Shown: positions 9,781-20,581 of the stretch, in pieces
Layout: every line of letters begins with the position of its first letter
Numbering within the stretch: the stretch's first letter is position 1
Origin: Flavobacteriaceae bacterium
GTDB lineage: Bacteria > Bacteroidota > Bacteroidia > Flavobacteriales > Flavobacteriaceae
Reading direction: 5' to 3'
Length of the DNA: 64,000 nucleotides
Assembly: GCA_023262185.1 (NCBI GenBank)
Contig: JALRDO010000002.1
Span: 14,044 to 78,043 of the forward strand
The notes under the pieces: generated by a model
Seen by the model: only the letters and a program-made list of their open reading frames with translations
The model's database searches: none
What the model was told of the DNA's origin: nothing
Position numbers and translations under genes: made by a program

Positions 9781-9824
9781 TTCGCAGTGGGAACATTGGC
9801 CGTAAGGTCAATGATCTCCCACCC
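9781..9824. repeat. 44-bp hairpin element, copy 2 (GTAA loop), overlapping the last codons and stop of the 9808-10215 CDS
   Basis: 43/44 identity to copy 1. The spacer between copies is 30 bp. Confidence 0.85.
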
Positions 9825-10215
9825 GTGTCCAGGTTTGGTCGGCGTCTAAGCGGTAAGAACCCTCGAGTTCGAAGTTGCATTCTTCAGGGCTCAAGATGGA
9901 TAAGAAGAGCCCTTTTCCAGGCTTTGAATACAAGTGGTACGTTTTACCCACCACAGGCTCAAAACTGAATGAGGCCTGATACACCTTGCGGTTGTCTTCA
10001 ACCTCTTTCATCATAGTCTCGTATGCCTTTTTCAATTCATCAATACGTGCCTTAAAGCGAGCATTGACTTGATGTGCACCCCGCTGCTTCCATCCAGTTA
10101 GGTCGGTGGGTTTGATTACTGGCCCTGTTACGTTGGTAGCATAAGGCTTCAAGAAAGCATCGAATTGCTCGCTTTCTTCATTATAGACGACTGAATCGGG
10201 CTTTTTATCCTTCAA
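9808..10215 (-). CDS. conserved hypothetical protein (possibly DUF2452 family)
   Basis: 135-aa ORF that overlaps gpx by 11 nt. The family assignment is from memory only. Confidence 0.45.
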   Translation of the reverse strand: MKDKKPDSVVYNEESEQFDAFLKPYATNVTGPVIKPTDLTGWKQRGAHQVNARFKARIDELKKAYETMMKEVEDNRKVYQASFSFEPVVGKTYHLYSKPGKGLFLSILSPEECNFELEGSYRLDADQTWTRVGDH

Positions 10216-10741
10216 AGTACTTGGTTATTTTTGATGATGTCGGATCTGTAGTAGAAAGATACGAATCGATCAAAACACGCTCTGGACTGATGAGGTATTT
10301 TTGGAAATTCCACTTTACGGTGCTAGACTTTGTCCCATTTTCTTCTTTCGAGGTAAGCCATTTGTACAGTGGATGGGATTGAGGGCCTTTAACTTTTACC
10401 TTTTCGGTCATGGTGAAACTCACTCCATAATTGAGGGAGCAGAAAGACTGAATGTCTTCAGCCGACCCCGGTTCTTGTGCCCCAAATTGATTACAGGGAA
10501 CTCCAATGATTTCAAGCTTGTCTTGATGCTGCTCATAGAGTGACTGAAGCTTCTTGTACTGGGGAGTAAAACCACAGTTCGAAGCTACATTTACAATAAG
10601 CAGATATTTACCGTCAAAAGCATCCCAGACTAGGGGATTACCGTCTAGTTTTTTGATCTCTATGTTCGGTAAGGGGTGTGGCGTACTAGGGGTACCATTC
10701 ATTTTGAGCAAACTATTTTTTATCGAATCAACTAGTTTCAT
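10205..10741 (-). CDS. glutathione peroxidase (Cys type)
   Basis: NVASNCGFT active site, CNQFGAQEPG and WNFQKYLI motifs. Confidence 0.9.
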   Translation of the reverse strand: MKLVDSIKNSLLKMNGTPSTPHPLPNIEIKKLDGNPLVWDAFDGKYLLIVNVASNCGFTPQYKKLQSLYEQHQDKLEIIGVPCNQFGAQEPGSAEDIQSFCSLNYGVSFTMTEKVKVKGPQSHPLYKWLTSKEENGTKSSTVKWNFQKYLISPERVLIDSYLSTTDPTSSKITKYFEG

Positions 10742-11442
10742 TATCCGTAGATATAACGGTGTAATTCAGCTAATTTTTCGGTTTGTTCAAATTGTCCACC
10801 GTAGAATGAAGTGACCGTAGCTGAGGTGTCGTCTTTGATTCCGCGCGAAGAAACGCAAAGGTGTTTTGCATCGATAATCACAGCAACATCCTCAGTGCCG
10901 AGTATGGCTTGTAAATCTGTACCAATCTGATTAGTCAGTCGTTCTTGAACTTGAGGTCGCTTGGCATAATATTGAACGATCCTGTTGAGTTTAGACAATC
11001 CAATCACCTTACCCGAAGAAATATAGGCGACATGAGCTTGTCCAATAATCGGCACAAAATGGTGTTCGCAGTTTGAATAAAAGGTGATGTTTTTTTCTAC
11101 GAGCATTTGCCCGTATTCATATTTGTTTTCAAACAACGCCACCTTAGGTTTGTTTGCTGGGTTCAGCCCTGAGAAAATCTCGTCGATGTACATTTTGGCC
11201 ACGCGCATGGGAGTGCCTCTTAATGAATCGTCAGTGAGATCGAGCCCCATTACGTGCATGATTTGCTCGAAAAGTGCAGCAATTTGCTCTTTTTTCTCAG
11301 TATCACTTTGTTCGAAAGCATCAGCTCTTAGTGGAGTTTCTAATCCGGAATACAGGTGATCGTCACCGATTTCATCTATATCCAAACCAGCAAAGGCCTT
11401 TGACGAAAGCGCTCTCTCAATAAGTGTTTTGGGATTGTTCAT
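10741..11442 (-). CDS. folE: GTP cyclohydrolase I
   Basis: SNCEHHFVP zinc-site motif and VIIDAKHLC. Confidence 0.9.
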   Translation of the reverse strand: MNNPKTLIERALSSKAFAGLDIDEIGDDHLYSGLETPLRADAFEQSDTEKKEQIAALFEQIMHVMGLDLTDDSLRGTPMRVAKMYIDEIFSGLNPANKPKVALFENKYEYGQMLVEKNITFYSNCEHHFVPIIGQAHVAYISSGKVIGLSKLNRIVQYYAKRPQVQERLTNQIGTDLQAILGTEDVAVIIDAKHLCVSSRGIKDDTSATVTSFYGGQFEQTEKLAELHRYIYG

Positions 11443-11521: not shown

Positions 11522-11938
11522 TTAATGAGGCAGCTTGGGGCGGAGCATTCCGTAAACAAAGGTTCCTGCAATGGCAGAGGCCAGAACAACAATTACGGGT
11601 AAAAATCCTGCTCCGATTAGCGTAAAAATCGGGCCAGGACATGCACCGGCAAGACCCCAACCAAGGCCAAAAATTGTTCCGCCAAACAAATAGTTTTTCC
11701 ATCCTTTGGCTTTTGGTGGAATGATAATTTCTTCGCCTGAGAAAGATTTCACTTTGTTGCGTTTAATCAGTTGAATTCCGATGACTCCTACAGCTAAGGC
11801 TGAGCCTATGATCCCGTACATGTGAAATGAATCGAACTGGAACATTTCAACGATTCTAAACCAAGAAGCAGCTTCTGACTTGAACATAATGATGCCAAAG
11901 GCGATTCCGGTAAGTAGGTATTTTATAGTATTTATCAT
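11522..11938 (-). CDS. YeeE/YedE-family sulfur-compound transporter, C-terminal-half homolog
   Basis: 138-aa, 4-TM protein with a GLAGACPGP motif. Lies 3 nt after its partner gene. Confidence 0.7.
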   Translation of the reverse strand: MINTIKYLLTGIAFGIIMFKSEAASWFRIVEMFQFDSFHMYGIIGSALAVGVIGIQLIKRNKVKSFSGEEIIIPPKAKGWKNYLFGGTIFGLGWGLAGACPGPIFTLIGAGFLPVIVVLASAIAGTFVYGMLRPKLPH

Positions 11939-11941
11939 GAC

Positions 11942-12505
11942 TTAAGCGAATAGAAGTGGGTAAATAAAATGAACCATTAAAAGTCCTCCGGCAAAGAAGC
12001 CAATCACTGCGATTAAGGAAGGAAGCTGAAGATCACTGAGACCTGATATCGCATGACCTGAGGTGCATCCGCCTGCAAAGCGCGATCCAAAGCCCACTAA
12101 AAAGCCCCCGACGGCAATGAGAATTAAACTTTTCGGATTCGAGAGCGCTTCCATAGAGAAAAGTTGTTCTGGTAAATAAGCACTTCCTCCGTCGTTAAAT
12201 CCGTATTGCTGAAGCCATTGAATGGTGTTTTCTGAAATATCAACCGATACGTCAGTGCTCAAAAAGGTAATCGCGATATATCCACCTACTATAGCACCGA
12301 TACTAAAAACGAGGTTCCATCGCTGAGCCTTCCAATCAAACTTAAAGAAATCACACGCCTTATTGCCACCAATGGCTGCACAAAGGGTTCTGAGATTTCC
12401 TGACATTCCGAAATTGCGGCCAGAGAGGATGAGAAAAAACATCACCGCCGCGATAAGCGGGCCCGACACGTACCAAGGCCATGGATTAAGTATAGCTTCT
12501 AACAT
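11942..12505 (-). CDS. YeeE/YedE-family sulfur-compound transporter, N-terminal-half homolog
   Basis: 187-aa membrane protein with a FAGGCTSGHAISG motif. Confidence 0.7.
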   Translation of the reverse strand: MLEAILNPWPWYVSGPLIAAVMFFLILSGRNFGMSGNLRTLCAAIGGNKACDFFKFDWKAQRWNLVFSIGAIVGGYIAITFLSTDVSVDISENTIQWLQQYGFNDGGSAYLPEQLFSMEALSNPKSLILIAVGGFLVGFGSRFAGGCTSGHAISGLSDLQLPSLIAVIGFFAGGLLMVHFIYPLLFA

Positions 12506-12554: not shown

Positions 12555-12576
12555 AAAGGTAACCTAGGTTACCTTT
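12555..12576 (-). promoter_or_regulatory. perfect 22-bp palindrome with GTAAC-ctag-GTTAC core (candidate Crp/Fnr operator, site A)
   Basis: aaaggtaacctaggttaccttt is its own reverse complement. One of four related dyads in the locus. Confidence 0.6.
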
Positions 12577-12621: not shown

Positions 12622-13905
12622 TTAAACATCTTCTCCTTTGAGCATCTTATTCCAATAGAGGTAAGGAAGCCCAAACTTCTTTAACATCCACAACCTCCAG
12701 TGTTCCTTTGAACTGTCGAATACTAGCATCTGCTTTAATTTCGGATCTGGGGTGAAGTTGTTGTCGTAGTCGAACTCTGCAAGAACCATTTTTCCATACC
12801 CCGTTACTAGCGGACATGAAGAATATCCATTATAACTCCTTGTGCCGAGCTTATTCTCTTTTTTGAGTTTAAGAATATTATCGATTACGATAGGTGCCTG
12901 GTTACGTATCGCAGCTCCTGTTTTGGCTGTCGGTACTCCGACCACATCTCCGATGCCAAAGACATTAGCAAACTTTTGGTGTTGAAGTGTGTGTTTATTT
13001 ACATCAAGCCATCCTTCCTCATTCGCTAAAGCCGATTCGCGAACAAATTTTGGTGCTGCTTGTGGTGGTGCCAAATGAAGAAAATCGAACTTAATCGCGA
13101 TGCGGCCACCTTCTTCTTTAGTGGCTCCGAAAGCATTTTGAGGATCCCATGAACAACCCTCTTTCTGACTGAAGCAGGCGTGATCTTCGGGTGTTTTATC
13201 GGTAAAGTATACGACCTTGTTTTTTCCATCAATTTCAACTGGAGTGTGATACGGATGAAAATGAATACCATATTTACGGATGACCTTCATCAAGGTTTCT
13301 CGTATAACAGGTACCCCAAAAATGACGGTCCCAGGAGTAGCGAACATCATGTTGGTTTTCTTGTCAATGCCTTTTTTTCTGAGATAATCAGCGGCTAGAT
13401 AGGCGATCTTTTGAGGCGCTCCACCACATTTTATAGGAGTGGCGGGTTGCGTAAAGATTGCGTTTCCGCCTTTGAATTCTTGTAGTAGCTTCCAAGTGTG
13501 TTCAGGATCTGTATAGTTACTGCAAACTGCCCCTGATTTCATGGCATCCTCTAGACCTTTAATCATGCTAGGTTCCATCACTAGTCCTGGAGAAACGACG
13601 AGAAAGTCGTAAGAAATAGTTCCATTACTCGCTGTTTCTACCGCATTGTTCTCGGGATCAAAGCTCGTCACGGCATCTTTAATCCAATCGACGCCAGAGG
13701 GGATGAGTTCTGCCATGGGCTTCGCCGTTTTATTGTAGTCGAAAGTGCCGGCGCCAACTAATGTCCATGCTGGCTGGTAGTAGTGTGTGTCGGCGGGATC
13801 GATAATTCCGATAGATAAAGACTTGTCTAATTTTCTTAAACGAGCGGCCGTCATTAAGCCACCAGTTCCTGCCCCAATGATGAGGATTTCAAGTGATTTA
13901 GACAT
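12622..13905 (-). CDS. sqr: sulfide:quinone oxidoreductase (type II-like flavoprotein)
   Basis: N-terminal FAD fold IIGAGTGG. Redox Cys motifs PIKCGGAPQK and YSSCPLVTG resemble type II / mitochondrial-type SQR. Confidence 0.8.
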   Translation of the reverse strand: MSKSLEILIIGAGTGGLMTAARLRKLDKSLSIGIIDPADTHYYQPAWTLVGAGTFDYNKTAKPMAELIPSGVDWIKDAVTSFDPENNAVETASNGTISYDFLVVSPGLVMEPSMIKGLEDAMKSGAVCSNYTDPEHTWKLLQEFKGGNAIFTQPATPIKCGGAPQKIAYLAADYLRKKGIDKKTNMMFATPGTVIFGVPVIRETLMKVIRKYGIHFHPYHTPVEIDGKNKVVYFTDKTPEDHACFSQKEGCSWDPQNAFGATKEEGGRIAIKFDFLHLAPPQAAPKFVRESALANEEGWLDVNKHTLQHQKFANVFGIGDVVGVPTAKTGAAIRNQAPIVIDNILKLKKENKLGTRSYNGYSSCPLVTGYGKMVLAEFDYDNNFTPDPKLKQMLVFDSSKEHWRLWMLKKFGLPYLYWNKMLKGEDV

Positions 13906-13945: not shown

Positions 13946-13998
13946 AAAAAAAAAATAACCCTTTGCCTTTGTAACATAAGTTACATAAGCAAAGGGTT
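13946..13998 (-). terminator. intrinsic terminator after the persulfide dioxygenase gene
   Basis: Stem aaccctttgc/gcaaagggtt (10 bp), extended by the inner dyad. A T10 run follows on the minus strand. Confidence 0.7.
13970..13985 (-). promoter_or_regulatory. dyad tGTAACataaGTTACa (candidate Crp/Fnr operator, site B) upstream of sqr
   Basis: Perfect half-site symmetry. Shares its centre with the terminator hairpin. Confidence 0.55.
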
Positions 13999-14022
13999 GT
14001 CTTAAAAAAGAAAACAGGTGTT

Positions 14023-15441
14023 TTATGCCGATGGCATCGTTGATGGGCAAACGTAGTCGGTCAATTTAATTTCAGCAGCCTCCATGGCTTTGAATCCACC
14101 GTCTACATTGATCATATTGTGAATTCCGCGGCTCTTTAAAATTGAAGCGGCAATAACTGAACGGTATCCTCCAGCACAATGAATGTAGAACGATCCGTCT
14201 TCTGGGAATTCTTCTAGATAATTATTTAAGAAATCAAGAGGAGCGTTGTGCGAGTCAGGAACACGGTGTGCATAGTGTTCAGACTCTTTACGAACGTCAA
14301 AGATCTCTACTGGGCCTGAAGCCATTTCTTTCTTGAGTTCTTCTGCAGTTACAGTGCTTACATTGTCGTATTCTTTGCCTGACTTCTTCCACTGCTCGAA
14401 ACCTCCTTCTAGATAGCCTAGTGTGTTGTCGAACCCAACGCGTGCAATGCGTGTGATGGCTTCTTCTTCACGACCTTCTGGAGTCACCAAAAGAATAGGC
14501 TGCTCAGTGTCTGCTACAAGGGCGCCAACCCATGGGGCAAAGCTTCCATCAAGACCGATAAAAATGGAACGAGGCACATGTCCCTGCGCGAAGTCTTTCT
14601 CGTTGCGAACGTCAAGAACAATAGCGCCTGTTTGATTTGCAACGTCTTCGAAGGCCTCAGGGCTCAACGGACGAGATCCACGCTCAAGTACTTCATCAAA
14701 ATCATCGTATCCTTCTTTATTCATCTTCACGTTTAGAGGAAAATATTGAGGAGGAGGCAGCAATCCGTCGGTTACCTCTTTGACGAATTCTTCTTTGGTC
14801 ATATCTGCACGAAGGGCATAGTTCATTTTTTTTTGGTTACCCAACGAGTCAACCGTTTCTTTCATCATGTTTTTTCCGCAGGCTGAACCTGCTCCGTGAC
14901 CTGGATATACCGTAACATCGTCTGCTAATGGCATAATCTTATTGCGTAAGCTGTCGTATAAGGTTTCTGCCAATTGCTCTTGGGTCATGTGTGCCGCTTT
15001 TTGTGCCAAATCGGGTCTTCCGACGTCACCTAAGAAAAGGGTGTCACCACTAAAGATGGCATGGTCTTTACCCGATGCATCTCTCAACAAGTAGGTGGTC
15101 GATTCCATGGTGTGACCTGGGGTATGTAAAACAACAATGGTAACATCTCCTAATTTAAACTCTTGCCCATCTTTTGCGATAATAGCGTCAAAACTAGGGT
15201 TCGCATTTGGTCCATAGATAATAGGAGCCCCCGACTCTTTTCCTAAGGTAACGTGGCCACTCACGAAGTCGGCGTGAAAATGCGTTTCAAAAATGTACTT
15301 GATCGATGCATTTGACTCTTTAGCTTTATCAAGGTATGGTTGAACCTCGCGTAATGGATCGATGATGGCTACCTCTCCGTTACTTTCAATATAATAAGCT
15401 CCTTGAGCTAGGCATCCGGTGTATATCTGTTCTATTTTCAT
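14023..15441 (-). CDS. persulfide dioxygenase (MBL fold) fused to two rhodanese-homology domains (CstB-like)
   Basis: Metal motif HFHADFVSGH. The middle rhodanese-like domain has no Cys. The C-terminal rhodanese has the active loop HCAGGYRS. Confidence 0.8.
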   Translation of the reverse strand: MKIEQIYTGCLAQGAYYIESNGEVAIIDPLREVQPYLDKAKESNASIKYIFETHFHADFVSGHVTLGKESGAPIIYGPNANPSFDAIIAKDGQEFKLGDVTIVVLHTPGHTMESTTYLLRDASGKDHAIFSGDTLFLGDVGRPDLAQKAAHMTQEQLAETLYDSLRNKIMPLADDVTVYPGHGAGSACGKNMMKETVDSLGNQKKMNYALRADMTKEEFVKEVTDGLLPPPQYFPLNVKMNKEGYDDFDEVLERGSRPLSPEAFEDVANQTGAIVLDVRNEKDFAQGHVPRSIFIGLDGSFAPWVGALVADTEQPILLVTPEGREEEAITRIARVGFDNTLGYLEGGFEQWKKSGKEYDNVSTVTAEELKKEMASGPVEIFDVRKESEHYAHRVPDSHNAPLDFLNNYLEEFPEDGSFYIHCAGGYRSVIAASILKSRGIHNMINVDGGFKAMEAAEIKLTDYVCPSTMPSA

Positions 15442-15498: not shown

Positions 15499-15514
15499 TG
15501 TTACTAAAGTTACA
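15499..15514 (-). promoter_or_regulatory. dyad tGTTACtaaaGTTACa (candidate Crp/Fnr operator, site C) upstream of the dioxygenase gene
   Basis: One central mismatch from perfect symmetry. 29 nt lie between the dyad centre and a TATTTTCG -7-like box. Confidence 0.5.
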
Positions 15515-15518
15515 TATT

Positions 15519-17246
15519 CTAGGATTTTGACTCTAGCGCGATTTTTTTACCCAAATCTTCTGCGCCATGCTCACCCGATGCTACTTGGTAGGCACTGTGT
15601 GTGTTTTCAAAAAACGAATCTTCTCCAAGAAGAGATACAATACCACTTCGCCTTAGGATATCCCTTATTGGTCCTATAGGTCCAGCGATCGAAACAGTAA
15701 TGTTTTTTGATTTCAAATCTTCAAAGAATTGACGTAGCATAAAGGCGGCTGAACTATCGATATAGTTTATAGGCTCTACATTTAAAATGAGGTGTTTTAA
15801 TGAGGCTCCTCGCCCCTCAATGGCCGCCATGAGGCTAGTTTTGAAATATTCTTTGTTTCCGAAATAGAGCTGTCCATCAAAACGAAAAAGCAATATGGCC
15901 GGATCGATGGTTACCTCATTGGCAAAGCGCTTCACATTTCTGTAATAAGGGCTTTGGTTCACCCGAGCTAGAATGGCATAGTGAGGGCTTGAACTGCGGT
16001 AAACAAGAAGTAACAGTGAGAGCAGCACACCAAACAATATTCCTTCTTTGATTCCTACTGTTAGTGTAATCACAAAGGTAAAAATCAATAGCGCAAATTC
16101 ATCCTTTCTGTTTTTCAACAGGGTTAGAGGATATTGAATATCGATCAGACCGAATACTGCTACCATTATTATGGCGGCAAGAACGGTGTTAGGAAGGTAA
16201 TAAAATAGTGGGGTAAGAAAGAGTAAGGTTAAACCTACAATGGCTGCGCTGATAAAAGAGGCTAGGGTAGAATTGGCTCCTGCCTGATCGTTAACCGCCG
16301 TTCTAGAGAACCCGCCCGTGGTAGGATAGGATTGAAAAAGTGAGCCCACCAAATTAGAGAGCCCCAAGGCGACCAACTCTTGGTTTGGTTTTACTTCATT
16401 GAGTCTGTGCTTTTCTTCTATAGCCTTGGCAACCGAGATAGCTTCCATGAAGGCGATCAGTGCTAAGGTCATTGCGATAGGGAATAGTTCTGAGATACGA
16501 TCTTGTCCTACTGAGGGGACTCCAAAAGAGGGCAGCCCTGAGGGAACTTCTTGTACAATAGAAAGTCCTAATTGATCCAATCTAAATAAGTAGGTGATGA
16601 CAATCCCTAAAACAGTCACAATGAGTGCTCCGGGAATACATTTGTTGAGTCGTTTTAATACTTTGATGAGCATTATGGCCGCTATTCCAAGCCCTAACGC
16701 AATAAGATTGGTTTGGTCAATGGTTTTAAGGGCATTTAAAAGCAAAATGTGTATTTGATTGCTTCGTTCTATTTGGGTCCCTAAAAGGTGTTTGAGTTGA
16801 CTTAGGCCAATAATGAGAGCAGCCGCTGTGGTGAATCCACTGATTACAGGCTTTGAGAGAAAGTTGACCAAGAATCCCATGCGGACCATTCCTAAAACAA
16901 ACTGTATAACTCCCATGAACAATGCTAGAAAAATAGCCATGCTCAAATATTCTTCAATACCCGAAAGCGATAAGGCTCCGAGTCCTGAGGCGACGAGCAA
17001 CGAGTCCATCGCAACAGGTCCGACGCTTAACTGACGCGATGTTCCGAGAATACCATAGATGACCTGGGGGACAAGCGCAGCATATAATCCAAATACCGGA
17101 GGTAGGCCTGCAATCATCGCATAAGCCATACCTTGAGGAATGAGCATGATACCCACAGTGATTCCTGCCGAGAGGTCACCACCTAGGTATTCTTTTTTGT
17201 AATTGGGCAGCCAGTCTAGCAGAGGTATAAAGGACTTCAATTTCAT
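15519..17246 (-). CDS. SulP-family inorganic anion transporter with C-terminal STAS domain
   Basis: 575 aa. Multi-TM SLC26/SulP core (SVGPVA motif) and a STAS-like tail. Confidence 0.85.
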   Translation of the reverse strand: MKLKSFIPLLDWLPNYKKEYLGGDLSAGITVGIMLIPQGMAYAMIAGLPPVFGLYAALVPQVIYGILGTSRQLSVGPVAMDSLLVASGLGALSLSGIEEYLSMAIFLALFMGVIQFVLGMVRMGFLVNFLSKPVISGFTTAAALIIGLSQLKHLLGTQIERSNQIHILLLNALKTIDQTNLIALGLGIAAIMLIKVLKRLNKCIPGALIVTVLGIVITYLFRLDQLGLSIVQEVPSGLPSFGVPSVGQDRISELFPIAMTLALIAFMEAISVAKAIEEKHRLNEVKPNQELVALGLSNLVGSLFQSYPTTGGFSRTAVNDQAGANSTLASFISAAIVGLTLLFLTPLFYYLPNTVLAAIIMVAVFGLIDIQYPLTLLKNRKDEFALLIFTFVITLTVGIKEGILFGVLLSLLLLVYRSSSPHYAILARVNQSPYYRNVKRFANEVTIDPAILLFRFDGQLYFGNKEYFKTSLMAAIEGRGASLKHLILNVEPINYIDSSAAFMLRQFFEDLKSKNITVSIAGPIGPIRDILRRSGIVSLLGEDSFFENTHSAYQVASGEHGAEDLGKKIALESKS

Positions 17247-17255
17247 GTATAGAGG

Positions 17256-17888
17256 TTAGAGGTCTATGATTTCGATATGATTTCGATGCAGTTTAATGCT
17301 ACCTACTTGCTCTAGTTTTTTGAGTAGGCGTGAAATTACTACACGAGAGCTGTGAAGCTCTTCAGCGATCTCTTTGTGTGTTTGGTACACAGAGTTTTCG
17401 CTGTTGATTCTAGATTTTTCTTTGAGATAGTCTTCGAGCCTTTCGTCTAGGCGTTCAAATGCCACTTTTTCTAGGCTTTCTAAAACCTCTTCAATGCGAT
17501 TTTGATAGTTTGAGAATACAAAGGTGCGCCAGCTTTGGTAGCGACCGAGCCACTCCTCCATCTTTTGAACCGGTATCATGATAAGTAAGGTGTCTAACTC
17601 GGCCACTGCTCGAATATGACTCTTTCGTTGCTCTACACAGCAGCTCATAGACATTGAACAGGTGTTTCCTTCCTCTACATAATAAAGGAGTAATTCTTCG
17701 CCATTATCGTACTCGCGTAAGACCTTAATCGCTCCGGTTAAGAGTAAAGGGATGCTTTTAATGTATTCTCCACTTCTTATGATTTCAGATCCGGCCTCTA
17801 TCTCGCGAAAGGTTCCAACCTGATTGATTTCTTGAAGTAAGGCGGATTCAAATATTTCTCCGTATGTCCCAGTGAGTTCTTTAATCAT
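17256..17888 (-). CDS. Crp/Fnr-family transcriptional regulator with clustered cysteines
   Basis: cNMP-binding-like barrel and C-terminal HTH SRVVISRLLKKLE. Its only cysteines are C77, C83 and C84 (TCSMSMSCC). Confidence 0.85.
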   Translation of the reverse strand: MIKELTGTYGEIFESALLQEINQVGTFREIEAGSEIIRSGEYIKSIPLLLTGAIKVLREYDNGEELLLYYVEEGNTCSMSMSCCVEQRKSHIRAVAELDTLLIMIPVQKMEEWLGRYQSWRTFVFSNYQNRIEEVLESLEKVAFERLDERLEDYLKEKSRINSENSVYQTHKEIAEELHSSRVVISRLLKKLEQVGSIKLHRNHIEIIDL

Positions 17889-17971: not shown

Positions 17972-17987
17972 AGTGACTTGGGTTACA
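17972..17987 (-). promoter_or_regulatory. dyad aGTGACttggGTTACa (candidate Crp/Fnr operator, site D) upstream of the regulator gene
   Basis: One mismatch from symmetry. 29 nt lie between the dyad centre and a TAGTTTTA -7-like box. Confidence 0.5.
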
Positions 17988-18049: not shown

Positions 18050-20581
18050 TTAGAGGTTTACGCGAAGCGTAGCGTTCCAAGTTCTTCCGAATCCGAACCA
18101 TACTGAGTTACGGACGTCAACACCGTTCCAAGTTTGAGAACTTGAAGTAGCGTGGATGTTTGTATTTGACTCAGCGATATATACTGTGTCCAACAAGTTA
18201 TTAATGTTTACTCTGAAGCTTGCGTTGTTTCCGAAAAGATCGAAACGGGCCATGGCTCCGAAGTCAATCAATCCGTACGATGGAAGCTTAACCGCTCCAT
18301 CATTGTTAGCTTCTAAGAAAGCTGAATCAACGATGCTGTAGTCAGCGTAAAGACCATCCACAAAGCGATACCCTAAATCAAATGAAATATTGTTTCCAAC
18401 TTTCTGCATGGCTTCAGCATAGAATACAAATTGAGCGGCATCACCCACTTTGGCATCCTTAATGTAAATTGTTCCTTCACCAATTTTTTGATTAGTATCA
18501 TCATATACTTCCGAAGAGAAGTCTTTGGTGTACTTCCAATTACCAGCAGATAACATACCTTTTAATCTGAAGTCTGGGGTGGTGTAATAGGTAGCTTCAA
18601 GTTCTAGTCCTTGATGTAAAACATCTACATCCTTAAATTGAGCTGTTCCTGAAGTGCCCCCATCCAAAGTAAAGCCTCTTGATATAAATCTATTTCCCCA
18701 AACTGTTGAGTAGAGATTCGCATTTAATTTAAAATCTGAACCTATGTATCCGTATCCCGCTTCAACAGATGTAATTTTTTCATTCTGCAAATCAGGGTTT
18801 ATTTTATTCGCGAAACCAGGGAAAACAGCATCAAATAATGGTTGACGAGAAATATATCCAGCATTTACGAAAAGATTGTTACTTGAATCTAAATTAATAT
18901 TTGCTCCACCCTTAACGTATCCACCAGGTGAATTTTGAACTGCAGAAATAGGATTGCCAACTTGATCAAAGTAGTCAACACGCTGGTAACTTTGACTTGA
19001 AAGACCAGCTTGAAGTACTGAAGTAAATTTATCGTCGTTGTTGTATTCAACCAATCCGTTAAATCCAGCCCACTTTACAATTCCTAGGTTGTAGTAATCG
19101 ATTTTTGGACCGCGGATTCCTGTTTTTCTGAAAGGATCAGCAGCTACAGTGGTTTCAATAATCAACCCTGATGTATTTTTATTTCCAGTAGAATAGTATC
19201 CATCTAGACCTAAAAGATCATTTAATACCCTATAGTGGTACCCTGTGTAAGAGCGTAAATCAACTCCAAAAGAATAACGGAATTTGTCGGCACGAATGTC
19301 AAGTGAAGAGATCGCACCTACCCAGTCATGAGAGTTCATTGAAGCACGACGAATCATAATTTCTCGGCTTACTCCATCATTTCTAAATCCATTTGATCCA
19401 ATGAGTTTTCCCGAGTATCCAGAAATGGCTCCTGAATAGGGCTTTGCATTAGCTCTATTAGTAGCAACTACTGCGTCAAAATTAATAGTTCCGTCAGGGA
19501 ATCGAGTTCCTCTTCCATTTTCTAAGTAATGAGTGGTTAAGTCAATATTATATGGATACATATCGATAGCTTTGTTACGGAAGTTGCTTCCTCGAGGCCC
19601 AGTTCCACCTCCGCGACCAGCTGATGCGTATACCGAGGTGTTCAACTGAACGTTGTCAGAAATATCCCAATCCCAGTTAAAAGTAGCCAACGGTTTGTTG
19701 TAGAAATTTCTTCTCATGTTGTATTCTTCCCCATTCAAAATACCTCCGTTGGTGTTCCAGCGACGATCGATACCGTCTTTGTGGTCCGTACCAAAATTTT
19801 GGTAGTCACGGATAGAAACCCAGGCGTCACGCTGATGGTGCCATTGTCCAGCTCCTAACATTGTTAGGTTGAAGTTGTGGTTTGACCCTTCAGGACTGTA
19901 TCCTACAGAGGCAAAATACGTCCAACCTTCTCCTTGAGTAGAGTTGATGTAACCGTCACCCTTCCAGTAGGTAAGAAGTAATGAAGTAGCCCATCCTTTC
20001 TCATTGGTACCTGTGTTGTGAACTGCAGTGGTTTTAGTATAACCGTCGTTACCCAACATCTGAGCGAATACTCCCCCAGCTTGACGATCTGCAGCTTTAG
20101 TGAAGATCGAAACCGTACCACCAACAGAAGGCACAGCCAATCTTGAAGCTCCAAGACCTCTTTGAATTTGGATGCTAGAAGTCACATCGGTAAGACCTTG
20201 CCAGTTTGACCAGTAAACCCATCCGTTTTCCATATCGTTCACGGGTTGACCGTTAATAAGGAATGCAGTGTTACTTTGAGAAAATCCGCGAAGACTGATA
20301 CGGCTATCTCCGTATCCTCCACCTTGTTTGGTGGCGTACACCCCTGGGGTGTTGTTCATAATTTCAGGAAATTCGAGGTTACCCACTTTAAATGCAACAT
20401 CATTTGCTGTAATGGTAGATACAGCTACAGGAGTAACACGTTCCTTTGCAACATCGATCACACGAGAAGAAACAACAACTTCTTCCAATTCTTGGATCAA
20501 CATTGAATCACTTTCTTGTTGCGCTTGAGCTGAAGCAATTAAAACAGCTGAGAAGGCCAACAGTGAAAAGAATTTTTTCAT
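18050..20581 (-). CDS. TonB-dependent outer membrane receptor
   Basis: Signal peptide ending ASAQA, a plug domain (SLRGF, INGQPVND), and a long beta-barrel. Confidence 0.85.
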   Translation of the reverse strand: MKKFFSLLAFSAVLIASAQAQQESDSMLIQELEEVVVSSRVIDVAKERVTPVAVSTITANDVAFKVGNLEFPEIMNNTPGVYATKQGGGYGDSRISLRGFSQSNTAFLINGQPVNDMENGWVYWSNWQGLTDVTSSIQIQRGLGASRLAVPSVGGTVSIFTKAADRQAGGVFAQMLGNDGYTKTTAVHNTGTNEKGWATSLLLTYWKGDGYINSTQGEGWTYFASVGYSPEGSNHNFNLTMLGAGQWHHQRDAWVSIRDYQNFGTDHKDGIDRRWNTNGGILNGEEYNMRRNFYNKPLATFNWDWDISDNVQLNTSVYASAGRGGGTGPRGSNFRNKAIDMYPYNIDLTTHYLENGRGTRFPDGTINFDAVVATNRANAKPYSGAISGYSGKLIGSNGFRNDGVSREIMIRRASMNSHDWVGAISSLDIRADKFRYSFGVDLRSYTGYHYRVLNDLLGLDGYYSTGNKNTSGLIIETTVAADPFRKTGIRGPKIDYYNLGIVKWAGFNGLVEYNNDDKFTSVLQAGLSSQSYQRVDYFDQVGNPISAVQNSPGGYVKGGANINLDSSNNLFVNAGYISRQPLFDAVFPGFANKINPDLQNEKITSVEAGYGYIGSDFKLNANLYSTVWGNRFISRGFTLDGGTSGTAQFKDVDVLHQGLELEATYYTTPDFRLKGMLSAGNWKYTKDFSSEVYDDTNQKIGEGTIYIKDAKVGDAAQFVFYAEAMQKVGNNISFDLGYRFVDGLYADYSIVDSAFLEANNDGAVKLPSYGLIDFGAMARFDLFGNNASFRVNINNLLDTVYIAESNTNIHATSSSQTWNGVDVRNSVWFGFGRTWNATLRVNL

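Follow-up and report, generated by a model that had tools for sequence, protein, structure and literature searches.

A Crp/Fnr-family regulator with a cysteine cluster in the former cAMP pocket, a candidate sulfane-sulfur-responsive activator of sulfide-oxidation genes in marine Flavobacteriaceae

How is the removal of sulfide controlled in Bacteroidota, and which kind of protein might perceive the signal? This question is raised by a locus in a stretch of 64,000 nucleotides (nt) from a Flavobacteriaceae bacterium (contig JALRDO010000002.1 of assembly GCA_023262185.1, positions 14,044 to 78,043), which is called the window in the following. It contains a gene for a Crp/Fnr-family regulator of 210 amino acids (aa; 17256..17888, minus strand), and this gene is followed on the same strand by five genes, namely, sulP, a dioxygenase-rhodanese gene, a gene similar to sqr for sulfide:quinone oxidoreductase (SQR), and a split yeeE/yedE pair. 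The dedicated sensors of sulfide and persulfides described so far have three folds and stem mostly from Proteobacteria and Firmicutes, i.e., CstR of the CsoR family, SqrR, BigR, and YgaV of the ArsR family, and the sigma-54 activator FisR. The Bacteroidota include the abundant marine Flavobacteriaceae, the gut Bacteroidales, and the oral hydrogen sulfide producer Porphyromonas, and to our knowledge the control of sulfide detoxification has not been described for this phylum. Comparative evidence makes it very probable that the regulator is a dedicated class II activator of the adjacent sulfide-oxidation genes.

A scan of one genome per species yielded 80 orthologous loci, the regulators of which are 56-88% identical to that of the window. 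They stem mostly from Flavobacteriaceae, including the genera Aquimarina, Kordia, Maribacter, Cellulophaga, Dokdonia, and Robiginitalea. Sulfur genes are located directly downstream of the regulator gene and on the same strand in 78 of the 80 loci. The first downstream gene encodes TauE in 42/80 and SulP in 25/80 cases, and further downstream genes for dioxygenase-rhodanese proteins (67 loci), rhodaneses (42), YeeE/YedE transporters (24-26), SQR (22 within the flank), and YgaP-like transmembrane proteins (13) are found.

The regulator gene is also accompanied by a palindromic DNA motif of 14 bp with the consensus GTAAC-N4-GTTAC. The original prediction had counted four such dyads at the locus, and the dyad scan confirmed all four as genuine (no strand assigned). 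They sit in four non-coding gaps of the window, two of them being perfect, upstream of yeeE (GTAACctagGTTAC, 12559..12572) and upstream of sqr (GTAACttatGTTAC, 13971..13984), and two having one mismatch, upstream of the dioxygenase-rhodanese gene (GTAACtttaGTAAC, 15500..15513) and upstream of the regulator gene itself (GTAACccaaGTCAC, 17973..17986). The whole window has seven matches versus 1.0 expected. The remaining three, at 20039, 22012, and 52826, have one mismatch each and were taken as chance matches; the first two are inside coding open reading frames (ORFs). The 80 orthologous loci contain 236 perfect dyads in 1.18 Mb, compared to 1.35 expected from the base composition. Nearly all of them are found within -700 to +8200 of the regulator start, and only one is present in the 8 kb upstream. 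The conserved synteny and the enrichment of the dyad therefore indicate that the regulator is dedicated to this gene set and that the dyad is its operator, and there is strong comparative reason to assume that the regulator binds GTAAC-N4-GTTAC. The earlier view of a dedicated regulator of a sulfide/persulfide locus is thus upheld by the synteny in 78/80 loci and by an operator that travels with the regulator.

The arrangement of the dyads relative to the promoters gives information about the direction of regulation. In the window, boxes similar to the -7 element of Bacteroidetes follow all four dyads, i.e., TAGTTTTA at 17950-17943, 29 nt from the centre of the 17973 dyad, TATTTTCG at 15477-15470, 29 nt from the centre of the 15500 dyad, TACCTTTT at 13946-13939, 31 nt from the centre of the 13971 dyad, and the -7 box TATTTTTG at 12535-12528, 30 nt from the centre of the 12559 dyad. 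With respect to the 236 perfect dyads of the orthologous loci, a search towards the operon revealed a TAnnTTT box at a distance of exactly 29 nt from the centre for 177, compared to 13 for the control direction, and a TTTG -33 element was not found after these dyads. According to the published consensus the -7 box of Bacteroidetes promoters occupies about -12 to -5. Together with the spacing of 29 nt this places the dyad centre near -41, where CRP and FNR bind at class II promoters. It is strongly indicated that the regulator has a site centred about 41 bp upstream of the transcription start at four promoters that lack a -33 element, those of regulator/sulP, dioxygenase-rhodanese, sqr, and yeeE/yedE. 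Because the phasing is exact to one base and the -33 element is missing, activation via a contact to RNA polymerase is favoured over repression, and repression by promoter occlusion is judged to be unlikely. The operator geometry indicates an activator and not a repressor that is relieved in the manner of CstR or SqrR. The 17973 dyad and its -7-like box imply a putative autoregulation of the regulator gene. The perfect dyad near sqr is the centre of an inverted repeat with arms of 24 nt (13952-14003), after which a T10 run comes on the coding strand, and this one sequence could terminate transcription of the dioxygenase gene and at the same time be the operator for sqr.

Within the Crp/Fnr superfamily the regulator belongs to the PgRsp-like family of Bacteroidota, and there to a clade with three cysteines (CCC). 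The assignment was based on the ORF, Pfam, the CRP/FNR fold, and 7385 homologues. Pfam attributes residues 28-116 to the cNMP_binding domain (PF00027) and residues 165-210 to HTH_Crp_2 (PF13545), both above the cut-off, and the architecture of the superfamily is complete, with a cNMP beta-roll, a long dimerisation helix, and a C-terminal Crp-type winged helix-turn-helix domain. An AlphaFold2 model based on an alignment of 21 sequences (mean predicted local distance difference test score, pLDDT, of 78.6) consists of the beta-roll, a helix from residue 118 to 161, and the winged helix-turn-helix. A Foldseek search with this model resulted exclusively in CRP/FNR-fold matches, with the PDB entry 3DV8 on top. 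The helix-turn-helix region comprises approximately residues 170-195 (THKEIAEELHSSRVVISRLLKKLEQ, 17304..17381, minus strand), as judged from Pfam HTH_Crp_2, the alignment to CRP, and the conservation in the family. In the recognition helix R182-V183...R187 align with R180-E181...R185 of CRP. The GTAAC motif has been tied to a residue other than Glu at CRP position 181 (Rodionov, 2005, PMC1274295). A second copy (paralogue) of the regulator is absent from the 64,000 nt of the window.

What might such a protein sense? Its cysteines are candidate sensing elements. It had been noted that the 210 residues include exactly three cysteines, all of them clustered, and C77, C83, and C84 are indeed the whole cysteine content. 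They are part of C77-S-M-S-M-S-C83-C84, encoded by 17637..17660 on the minus strand (reverse complement TGT TCA ATG TCT ATG AGC TGC TGT), and three random positions among 210 shared a span of eight residues in only 0.3% of trials. A profile alignment (hhalign) to Escherichia coli CRP, for which the classical residue numbering is used, is free of gaps between residues 29 and 91. It pairs C77 with I70, S78 with G71, M79 with E72, C83 with F76, C84 with E77, K89 with R82, and S90 with S83. The placement of the cluster in the former phosphate-binding cassette for cyclic AMP (cAMP), which had been made by eye, is thereby upheld, with C77-C84 corresponding to CRP residues 70-77. The CRP residues that contact cAMP, G71, E72, R82, S83, T127, and S128, are represented by S78, M79, K89, S90, L136, and E137, so that only the equivalent of Ser83 is retained, and K89 at the position of R82 varies among the homologues. 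Y69, S90, and R131 align with S62, S83, and R122 of CRP and are thus at or beside cAMP-contact positions. The motif T-C-x5-C-C is present in 80/80 orthologues, 79/80 have exactly three cysteines, and the triad is invariant in 21/21 aligned homologues. Cysteines in this pocket also occur in 3DV8, a structural genomics entry from Eubacterium rectale that is the best match in sequence and fold (E = 7e-21). Its sequence (MDMCLLSASCIM) has a cysteine each in place of C77 and C83 and an isoleucine in place of C84, and as its source is a Firmicute, such cysteine pockets occur also outside the Bacteroidota.

The regulator is not FNR, CRP, CooA, or HcpR2. The defining features of each of these groups were tested and are absent, the HcpR2 operator being the sole shared feature. 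The scores with the respective NCBIfam models are low, i.e., 19 bits with Fnr (cut-off 228) and 41 bits with CRP (cut-off 266), and also the match to the NtcA model is far below the cut-off. The FNR-type arrangement Cys-x2-Cys-x5-Cys plus a fourth Cys near the C-helix is not present. The stated mismatch to the four-cysteine pattern of FNR proved to be correct, as there is neither an N-terminal cysteine cluster nor any cysteine beyond the three. NtcA, the best characterised sequence match, is a 2-oxoglutarate-binding protein that recognises GTA-N8-TAC and has no cysteine in the pocket. CooA of Rhodospirillum rubrum (PDB 1FT9) has the same fold, and its segment F74-C75-M76-H77-S-G-C80 falls onto C77...C83 of the regulator within one residue of the register, in an hhalign comparison of low sequence similarity with an E-value of 4.5e-8. 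However, the regulator lacks Pro2 of CooA (its N-terminus is M-I-K) and an equivalent histidine; residues 72-90 are devoid of His, and the adjoining H91 is not conserved. Genes of the coo type were not found among the locus genes scanned with Pfam. HcpR2-type regulators have the same predicted operator, GTAAC-N4-GTTAC, and also a residue other than Glu at CRP position 181 (PMC1274295), but they are tied to hcp and sense nitric oxide through heme, while the loci of the regulator contain genes for SulP/TauE, dioxygenase-rhodanese, SQR, and YeeE instead (78/80). Nine neighbouring genes of the window were scanned for the hybrid-cluster-protein family, with zero matches. The ligand Met68 of HcpR, a regulator of Porphyromonas gingivalis, was considered as an equivalent of M79 and was rejected, because it lies by the flap, outside the phosphate-binding cassette. 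The Crp-family structure 1O5L of Thermotoga maritima, which we take to be an HcpR2-type protein, matches the regulator family only with E = 1e-4.

The cysteines have different histories within the family. Of the 3315 relatives obtained in an exhaustive HMMER search, 197 had an E-value of 1e-30 or better. The 150 best representatives were examined, and 141 full-length sequences were used for a tree and for conservation counts. The most conserved positions of the sensor domain are G52 (138 of 141) and C77 (137), and Y69 (134), S90 (127), and R131 (124) are also highly conserved. The family motif is G-[ED]-[ST]-C-x-[ML]-[ST], and the regulator reads GNTC77SM79S at this place. With regard to positions 77, 83, and 84, there are 50 CCC, 22 CCx, 29 CxC, and 36 Cxx proteins. 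The tree divides the family into two clades (support 99), and CCC is confined to one of them. A sulfur context is present in the CCA, CAG/CGG, CAC, and CTL classes. For example, a CCA protein sits ahead of genes for TauE, YeeE, YedE, and a metallo-beta-lactamase (MBL)-rhodanese, and CAG/CGG proteins from Mucilaginibacter, Chitinophaga, Cyclobacteriaceae, and others precede genes for rhodanese, OsmC, and a YgaP-like transmembrane protein or a TauE-YeeE-YedE-dioxygenase set. Genes for rhodanese, OsmC, YgaP_TM, or TauE-YeeE-YedE are found in 70/80 PgRsp-like loci. As sulfur clusters are still headed by proteins that have kept C77 alone or with one of the other two, and C83/C84 have repeatedly been lost while the sulfur context persists, a paired-cysteine bridge is not the core mechanism of the family, which modifies the original prediction of such a bridge. 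The expectation that the cysteines are conserved only in a sulfur context was borne out in part: the triad is invariant in the locus-linked orthologues, but family-wide only C77 tracks the sulfur context.

Several observations on relatives of the regulator may be added. A single-cysteine paralogue of the CTL class (motif GESCVMS..TTL) occurs within the sulfur loci of Aquimarina and Maribacter (L140, L141, L153, L154, L164, L006, L022), and in two Maribacter loci (L022, L154) it is encoded immediately ahead of a gene for a YgaP-like transmembrane protein and SQR. Two regulator paralogues in one island suggest that there may be two sensors that differ in their signals or targets. A subgroup of 207 aa from metagenome-assembled genomes of Bacteroidales and Lentimicrobiaceae (L093-L117) has the pattern C-x6-CC (HPGEMCIMSFSACCS). 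In most of these loci a divergent gene for an MntP manganese-efflux protein and a gene for LemA adjoin, often together with a porin-like gene, and recognisable sulfur genes are absent; the pocket cysteines of this subgroup may serve another signal. A metagenome contig (L167) encodes a CCC relative (P0222) of 37% identity just downstream of genes for MBL-rhodanese, YeeE, and YedE, in a different gene order. Its unusual amino-acid make-up suggests that it belongs to another lineage, in which case the link between CCC and sulfur would extend beyond Flavobacteriaceae.

One member of the family has been studied, PgRsp of Porphyromonas gingivalis (PGA7_00004090), which has been described as a heme-binding redox sensor that controls hmu, bcp, and virulence genes (Smiga and Olczak, 2019, PMC6955866). 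It purifies red and titrates with heme in vitro, with a Soret band at 412 nm in the oxidised and at 425 nm in the reduced form, and Cys76, Met78, and His85 were considered as candidate ligands; however, the heme spectra were unaltered in each of the variants C76A, M78A, and H85A, and DNA binding was unaffected by heme (PMC6955866). PgRsp binds to its own promoter, and the pgrsp mutant is sensitive to peroxide and to air, a phenotype that is strongest in cysteine-free medium (PMC6955866). PgRsp was compared with the regulator via a stretch of 24 residues and the C-terminal seven residues. The mutagenesis primers translate to YIKAGES-C76-I-M78-SFLGGL-H85-NETSKVK, the C-terminus is RNKITLM, and the primer motif is that of a single-cysteine subfamily, GESCIMSFLGG[IL]H. 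The protein of locus L186 matches 18/18 residues from GES to SK, and that of L155 ends with RNKITLM. Proteins with an identical (L186) or near-identical (L171-L250) motif have a full-length identity of 36-39% to the regulator and align their cysteine with C77. PgRsp thus is a member of the same Bacteroidota family by its motif, both proteins have about 207-210 aa and 3DV8 as best template, and C76 falls onto C77. In contrast to the regulator, PgRsp has only the first cysteine, with G82/G83 instead of C83/C84, and belongs to the other major clade of the tree. Porphyromonas itself is absent from the 80 loci that the scan with PgRsp-like proteins gave at an identity of at least 60%.

The literature search did not reveal a published link between PgRsp and sulfide, nor was a dedicated Crp/Fnr-fold sensor for reactive sulfur or persulfides found in the searchable literature. 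A 2026 review of reactive-sulfur sensors names Crp only as one of the persulfidated proteins of an Acinetobacter proteome. The assumption of an undescribed sensor class therefore stands as far as a dedicated persulfide sensor of this fold is concerned, and needs to be qualified for the family, since that has a studied member in PgRsp.

We propose that the signal is reactive (sulfane) sulfur, which would arise from the oxidation of sulfide by SQR. C77, at the place of the cAMP ribose-phosphate in CRP and beside the conserved Y69, S90, and R131, would become persulfidated. In the CCC clade, the vicinal C83/C84 on the same cassette would react with this persulfide to give a link of the di-, tri-, or tetrasulfide type. 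As with cAMP in CRP, this covalent modification would make the phosphate-binding cassette rigid relative to the long C-helix and thereby move the DNA-binding domains to the ON position. In single-cysteine relatives including PgRsp, the tethered 'ligand' might be a mixed persulfide or simply the persulfide of C77. We give about an even chance to thiol-based sensing of sulfane sulfur at C77, with C83/C84 as resolving thiols, that switches on the class II activator. More tentatively, and with the balance rather against it, the whole PgRsp-like family might be the dedicated reactive-sulfur sensor of the Bacteroidota. A C77 persulfide or thiosulfonate would then be a tethered 'ligand' gripped by S90 and R131, and C83/C84 of the marine Flavobacteriaceae would be an extra module for resolution that modulates the switch, e.g., by locking it with a polysulfide bridge.

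Several points weigh against the proposed sensing of sulfane sulfur. The sensing chemistry, including the signal, is inferred. The CCC state needs about 23 changes on the tree, and C83 and C84 are dispensable over evolution. Some CCC-class relatives are without recognisable sulfur genes nearby. The pLDDT of residues 79-87 in the AlphaFold2 model is below 50, so that this part of the model has low confidence. PgRsp binds heme in vitro, and the unchanged spectrum of C76A leaves the role of that cysteine unproven. The heme-ligand segment C75/H77 of CooA is at the place of the cysteine segment, with a shift of at most one residue, and repression from a site at about -41 is conceivable as well.

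The points concerning heme lead to a rival explanation, in which heme b would be bound within the pocket or beside it, and the thiolate of C77, perhaps together with M79, would be a switchable axial ligand. Sulfide would bind to or reduce the iron, displace the thiolate, and switch the regulator on, and CooA (Cys75/His77) and RcoM (Cys/Met) are models for such switchable ligands. In addition to the red colour and heme titration of PgRsp and the alignment of the cysteine segment with F74-C75-M76-H77...C80 of CooA, the recurrence of heme sensing in the Crp/Fnr fold (HcpR, DNR) speaks for this mechanism, and a role of heme in the sensing of sulfide has recently been reported for SqrR/YgaV (PMC12344995). 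We nevertheless regard it as unlikely: the ligand variants of PgRsp left the spectra unchanged and heme was without effect on DNA binding, there are zero conserved histidines in the sensor domain, a CooA-type N-terminal Pro/Ala ligand is missing, and heme binding of cysteine-containing proteins in vitro is often non-specific. M79 was rejected as a conserved second ligand, because it is less than 60% conserved across the family. The pocket might instead bind its effector non-covalently, e.g., thiosulfate, sulfite, polysulfide, or the persulfide of coenzyme A or glutathione, held reversibly by S90 and R131 in analogy to phosphate in CRP and 2-oxoglutarate in NtcA, and the cysteines would only shape the pocket. 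This would be in line with the conservation of Y69, S90, and R131 at CRP ligand-contact positions, with the fact that NtcA and CRP, which among characterised PDB entries are nearest in sequence, bind ligands, and with the anion transporter, TauE or SulP, that is nearly always encoded by the first downstream gene. It is somewhat more improbable than heme, as it leaves unexplained that a cysteine is the most conserved pocket residue (137/141) and that two further cysteines are invariant in the clade; furthermore, K89 at the position of CRP R82 varies.

Cysteines could also respond to oxidants in general. The regulator would then be activated whenever an oxidant generates a sulfenate or a disulfide between C77 and C83/84, and the link to sulfide would be indirect. 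A 'redox-sensing' function has been proposed for PgRsp and agrees with the peroxide and air sensitivity of the mutant, OsmC-type peroxidase genes follow PgRsp-like regulators in 35/80 loci, and a glutathione peroxidase gene is present downstream in the window. Precedents for a thiol-disulfide switch in this fold, which also count for the proposed sensing of sulfane sulfur, are FLP of Lactobacillus casei, CprK, and FixK2, Crp/Fnr-fold proteins in which the oxidation state of cysteines switches DNA binding. In these proteins, however, the cysteines are at the N-terminus, in the C-helix, or in the DNA-binding domain, and none of them is known to be linked to sulfide metabolism. We assign only a small probability to such a general switch, because the regulon consists of enzymes specific for sulfide and persulfides (SQR, CstB-like dioxygenase, YeeE), each with its own operator, and the folE-gpx genes lack a dyad. 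Moreover, discrimination against peroxide has been reported for dedicated persulfide sensors (10.1101/2020.03.22.001966). Least probable of all, in our view very improbable, is an Fe-S cluster or a soft metal bound by the three cysteines, a three-thiolate site as in ArsR-type sensors. Three clustered, invariant cysteines and the example of FNR as an Fe-S sensor in the superfamily would fit, but most relatives have just one or two of these cysteines and still retain the sulfur context, a fourth conserved ligand is absent across the family, and vicinal Cys-Cys pairs rarely ligate one cluster. In addition, metal-resistance genes were not found among the locus genes scanned with Pfam.

How does the proposed sulfane-sulfur activator compare to the established sulfide and persulfide sensors? 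Like CstR, SqrR/BigR/YgaV, and FisR it is a resident regulator of genes for SQR, dioxygenase-rhodanese, TauE, or YeeE, with conserved cysteines that are presumed to be sensing, and its gene set parallels the cst operon of Staphylococcus aureus (tauE-cstR-cstA-cstB-sqr). In contrast, its fold, a CRP beta-roll with a winged helix-turn-helix and not that of CsoR or ArsR, is unrelated to theirs. Its cysteines are also unlike those of CstR, SqrR, and FisR, being located in one loop of eight residues of one subunit, one universal and two clade-specific. Furthermore, CstR, SqrR, and BigR, in which two conserved cysteines become joined by di- to tetrasulfide links upon exposure to persulfides, are released from the DNA, whereas the regulator likely activates from about -41.

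The genes downstream of the regulator gene are all encoded on the minus strand. The sulP gene (15519..17246), which starts 9 nt past the stop codon of the regulator gene, encodes an SulP/STAS anion transporter (Pfam Sulfate_transp and STAS; TIGR00815 above cut-off). It is followed by a gene for a CstB-like persulfide dioxygenase of the MBL fold that is fused to two rhodanese domains, with the loop HCAGGYRS at the C-terminus (14023..15441; Pfam Lactamase_B and two Rhodanese stretches). The next genes encode an SQR-like flavoprotein (12622..13905; Pfam Pyr_redox_2, partial NCBIfam SQR_III match below cut-off) and a split YeeE/YedE-type sulfur transporter pair (11522..12505, i.e., 11942-12505 and 11522-11938; Pfam Sulf_transp and DUF6691, weak TsuA match). 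Downstream of this pair and in the same orientation (9808-11442) are genes for GTP cyclohydrolase I (folE), a glutathione peroxidase, and a DUF2452 protein. folE and the peroxidase gene hold the same place in the two closest genomes with sufficient flank (L002, L003), and the window scan did not reveal a GTAAC-N4-GTTAC dyad ahead of them. The locus is transcribed in seawater, as metatranscriptome contigs cover portions of yeeE, sqr, and the dioxygenase gene. Two of these contigs (runs X1 and X2; 95-99% identical) bridge the regulator-sulP junction (window positions 17021-17457), which is consistent with the presence of the regulator gene and sulP on one transcript in situ.

With a 14-bp operator, four promoters, and three cysteines, the system is well defined for experiments, and orthologues exist in culturable Maribacter, Aquimarina, Kordia, Dokdonia, and Cellulophaga. 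The proposed signal and its read-out by a cysteine pocket are new, while the fold, the class II mechanism, and also the family were known before. If the proposal is true, a Crp/Fnr-fold sulfane-sulfur activator would represent a further sensor class beside the CsoR, ArsR, and sigma-54 types, and it would exemplify a covalent route to the classic allosteric switch of CRP. It would also provide a testable signal for the unexplained regulator PgRsp.

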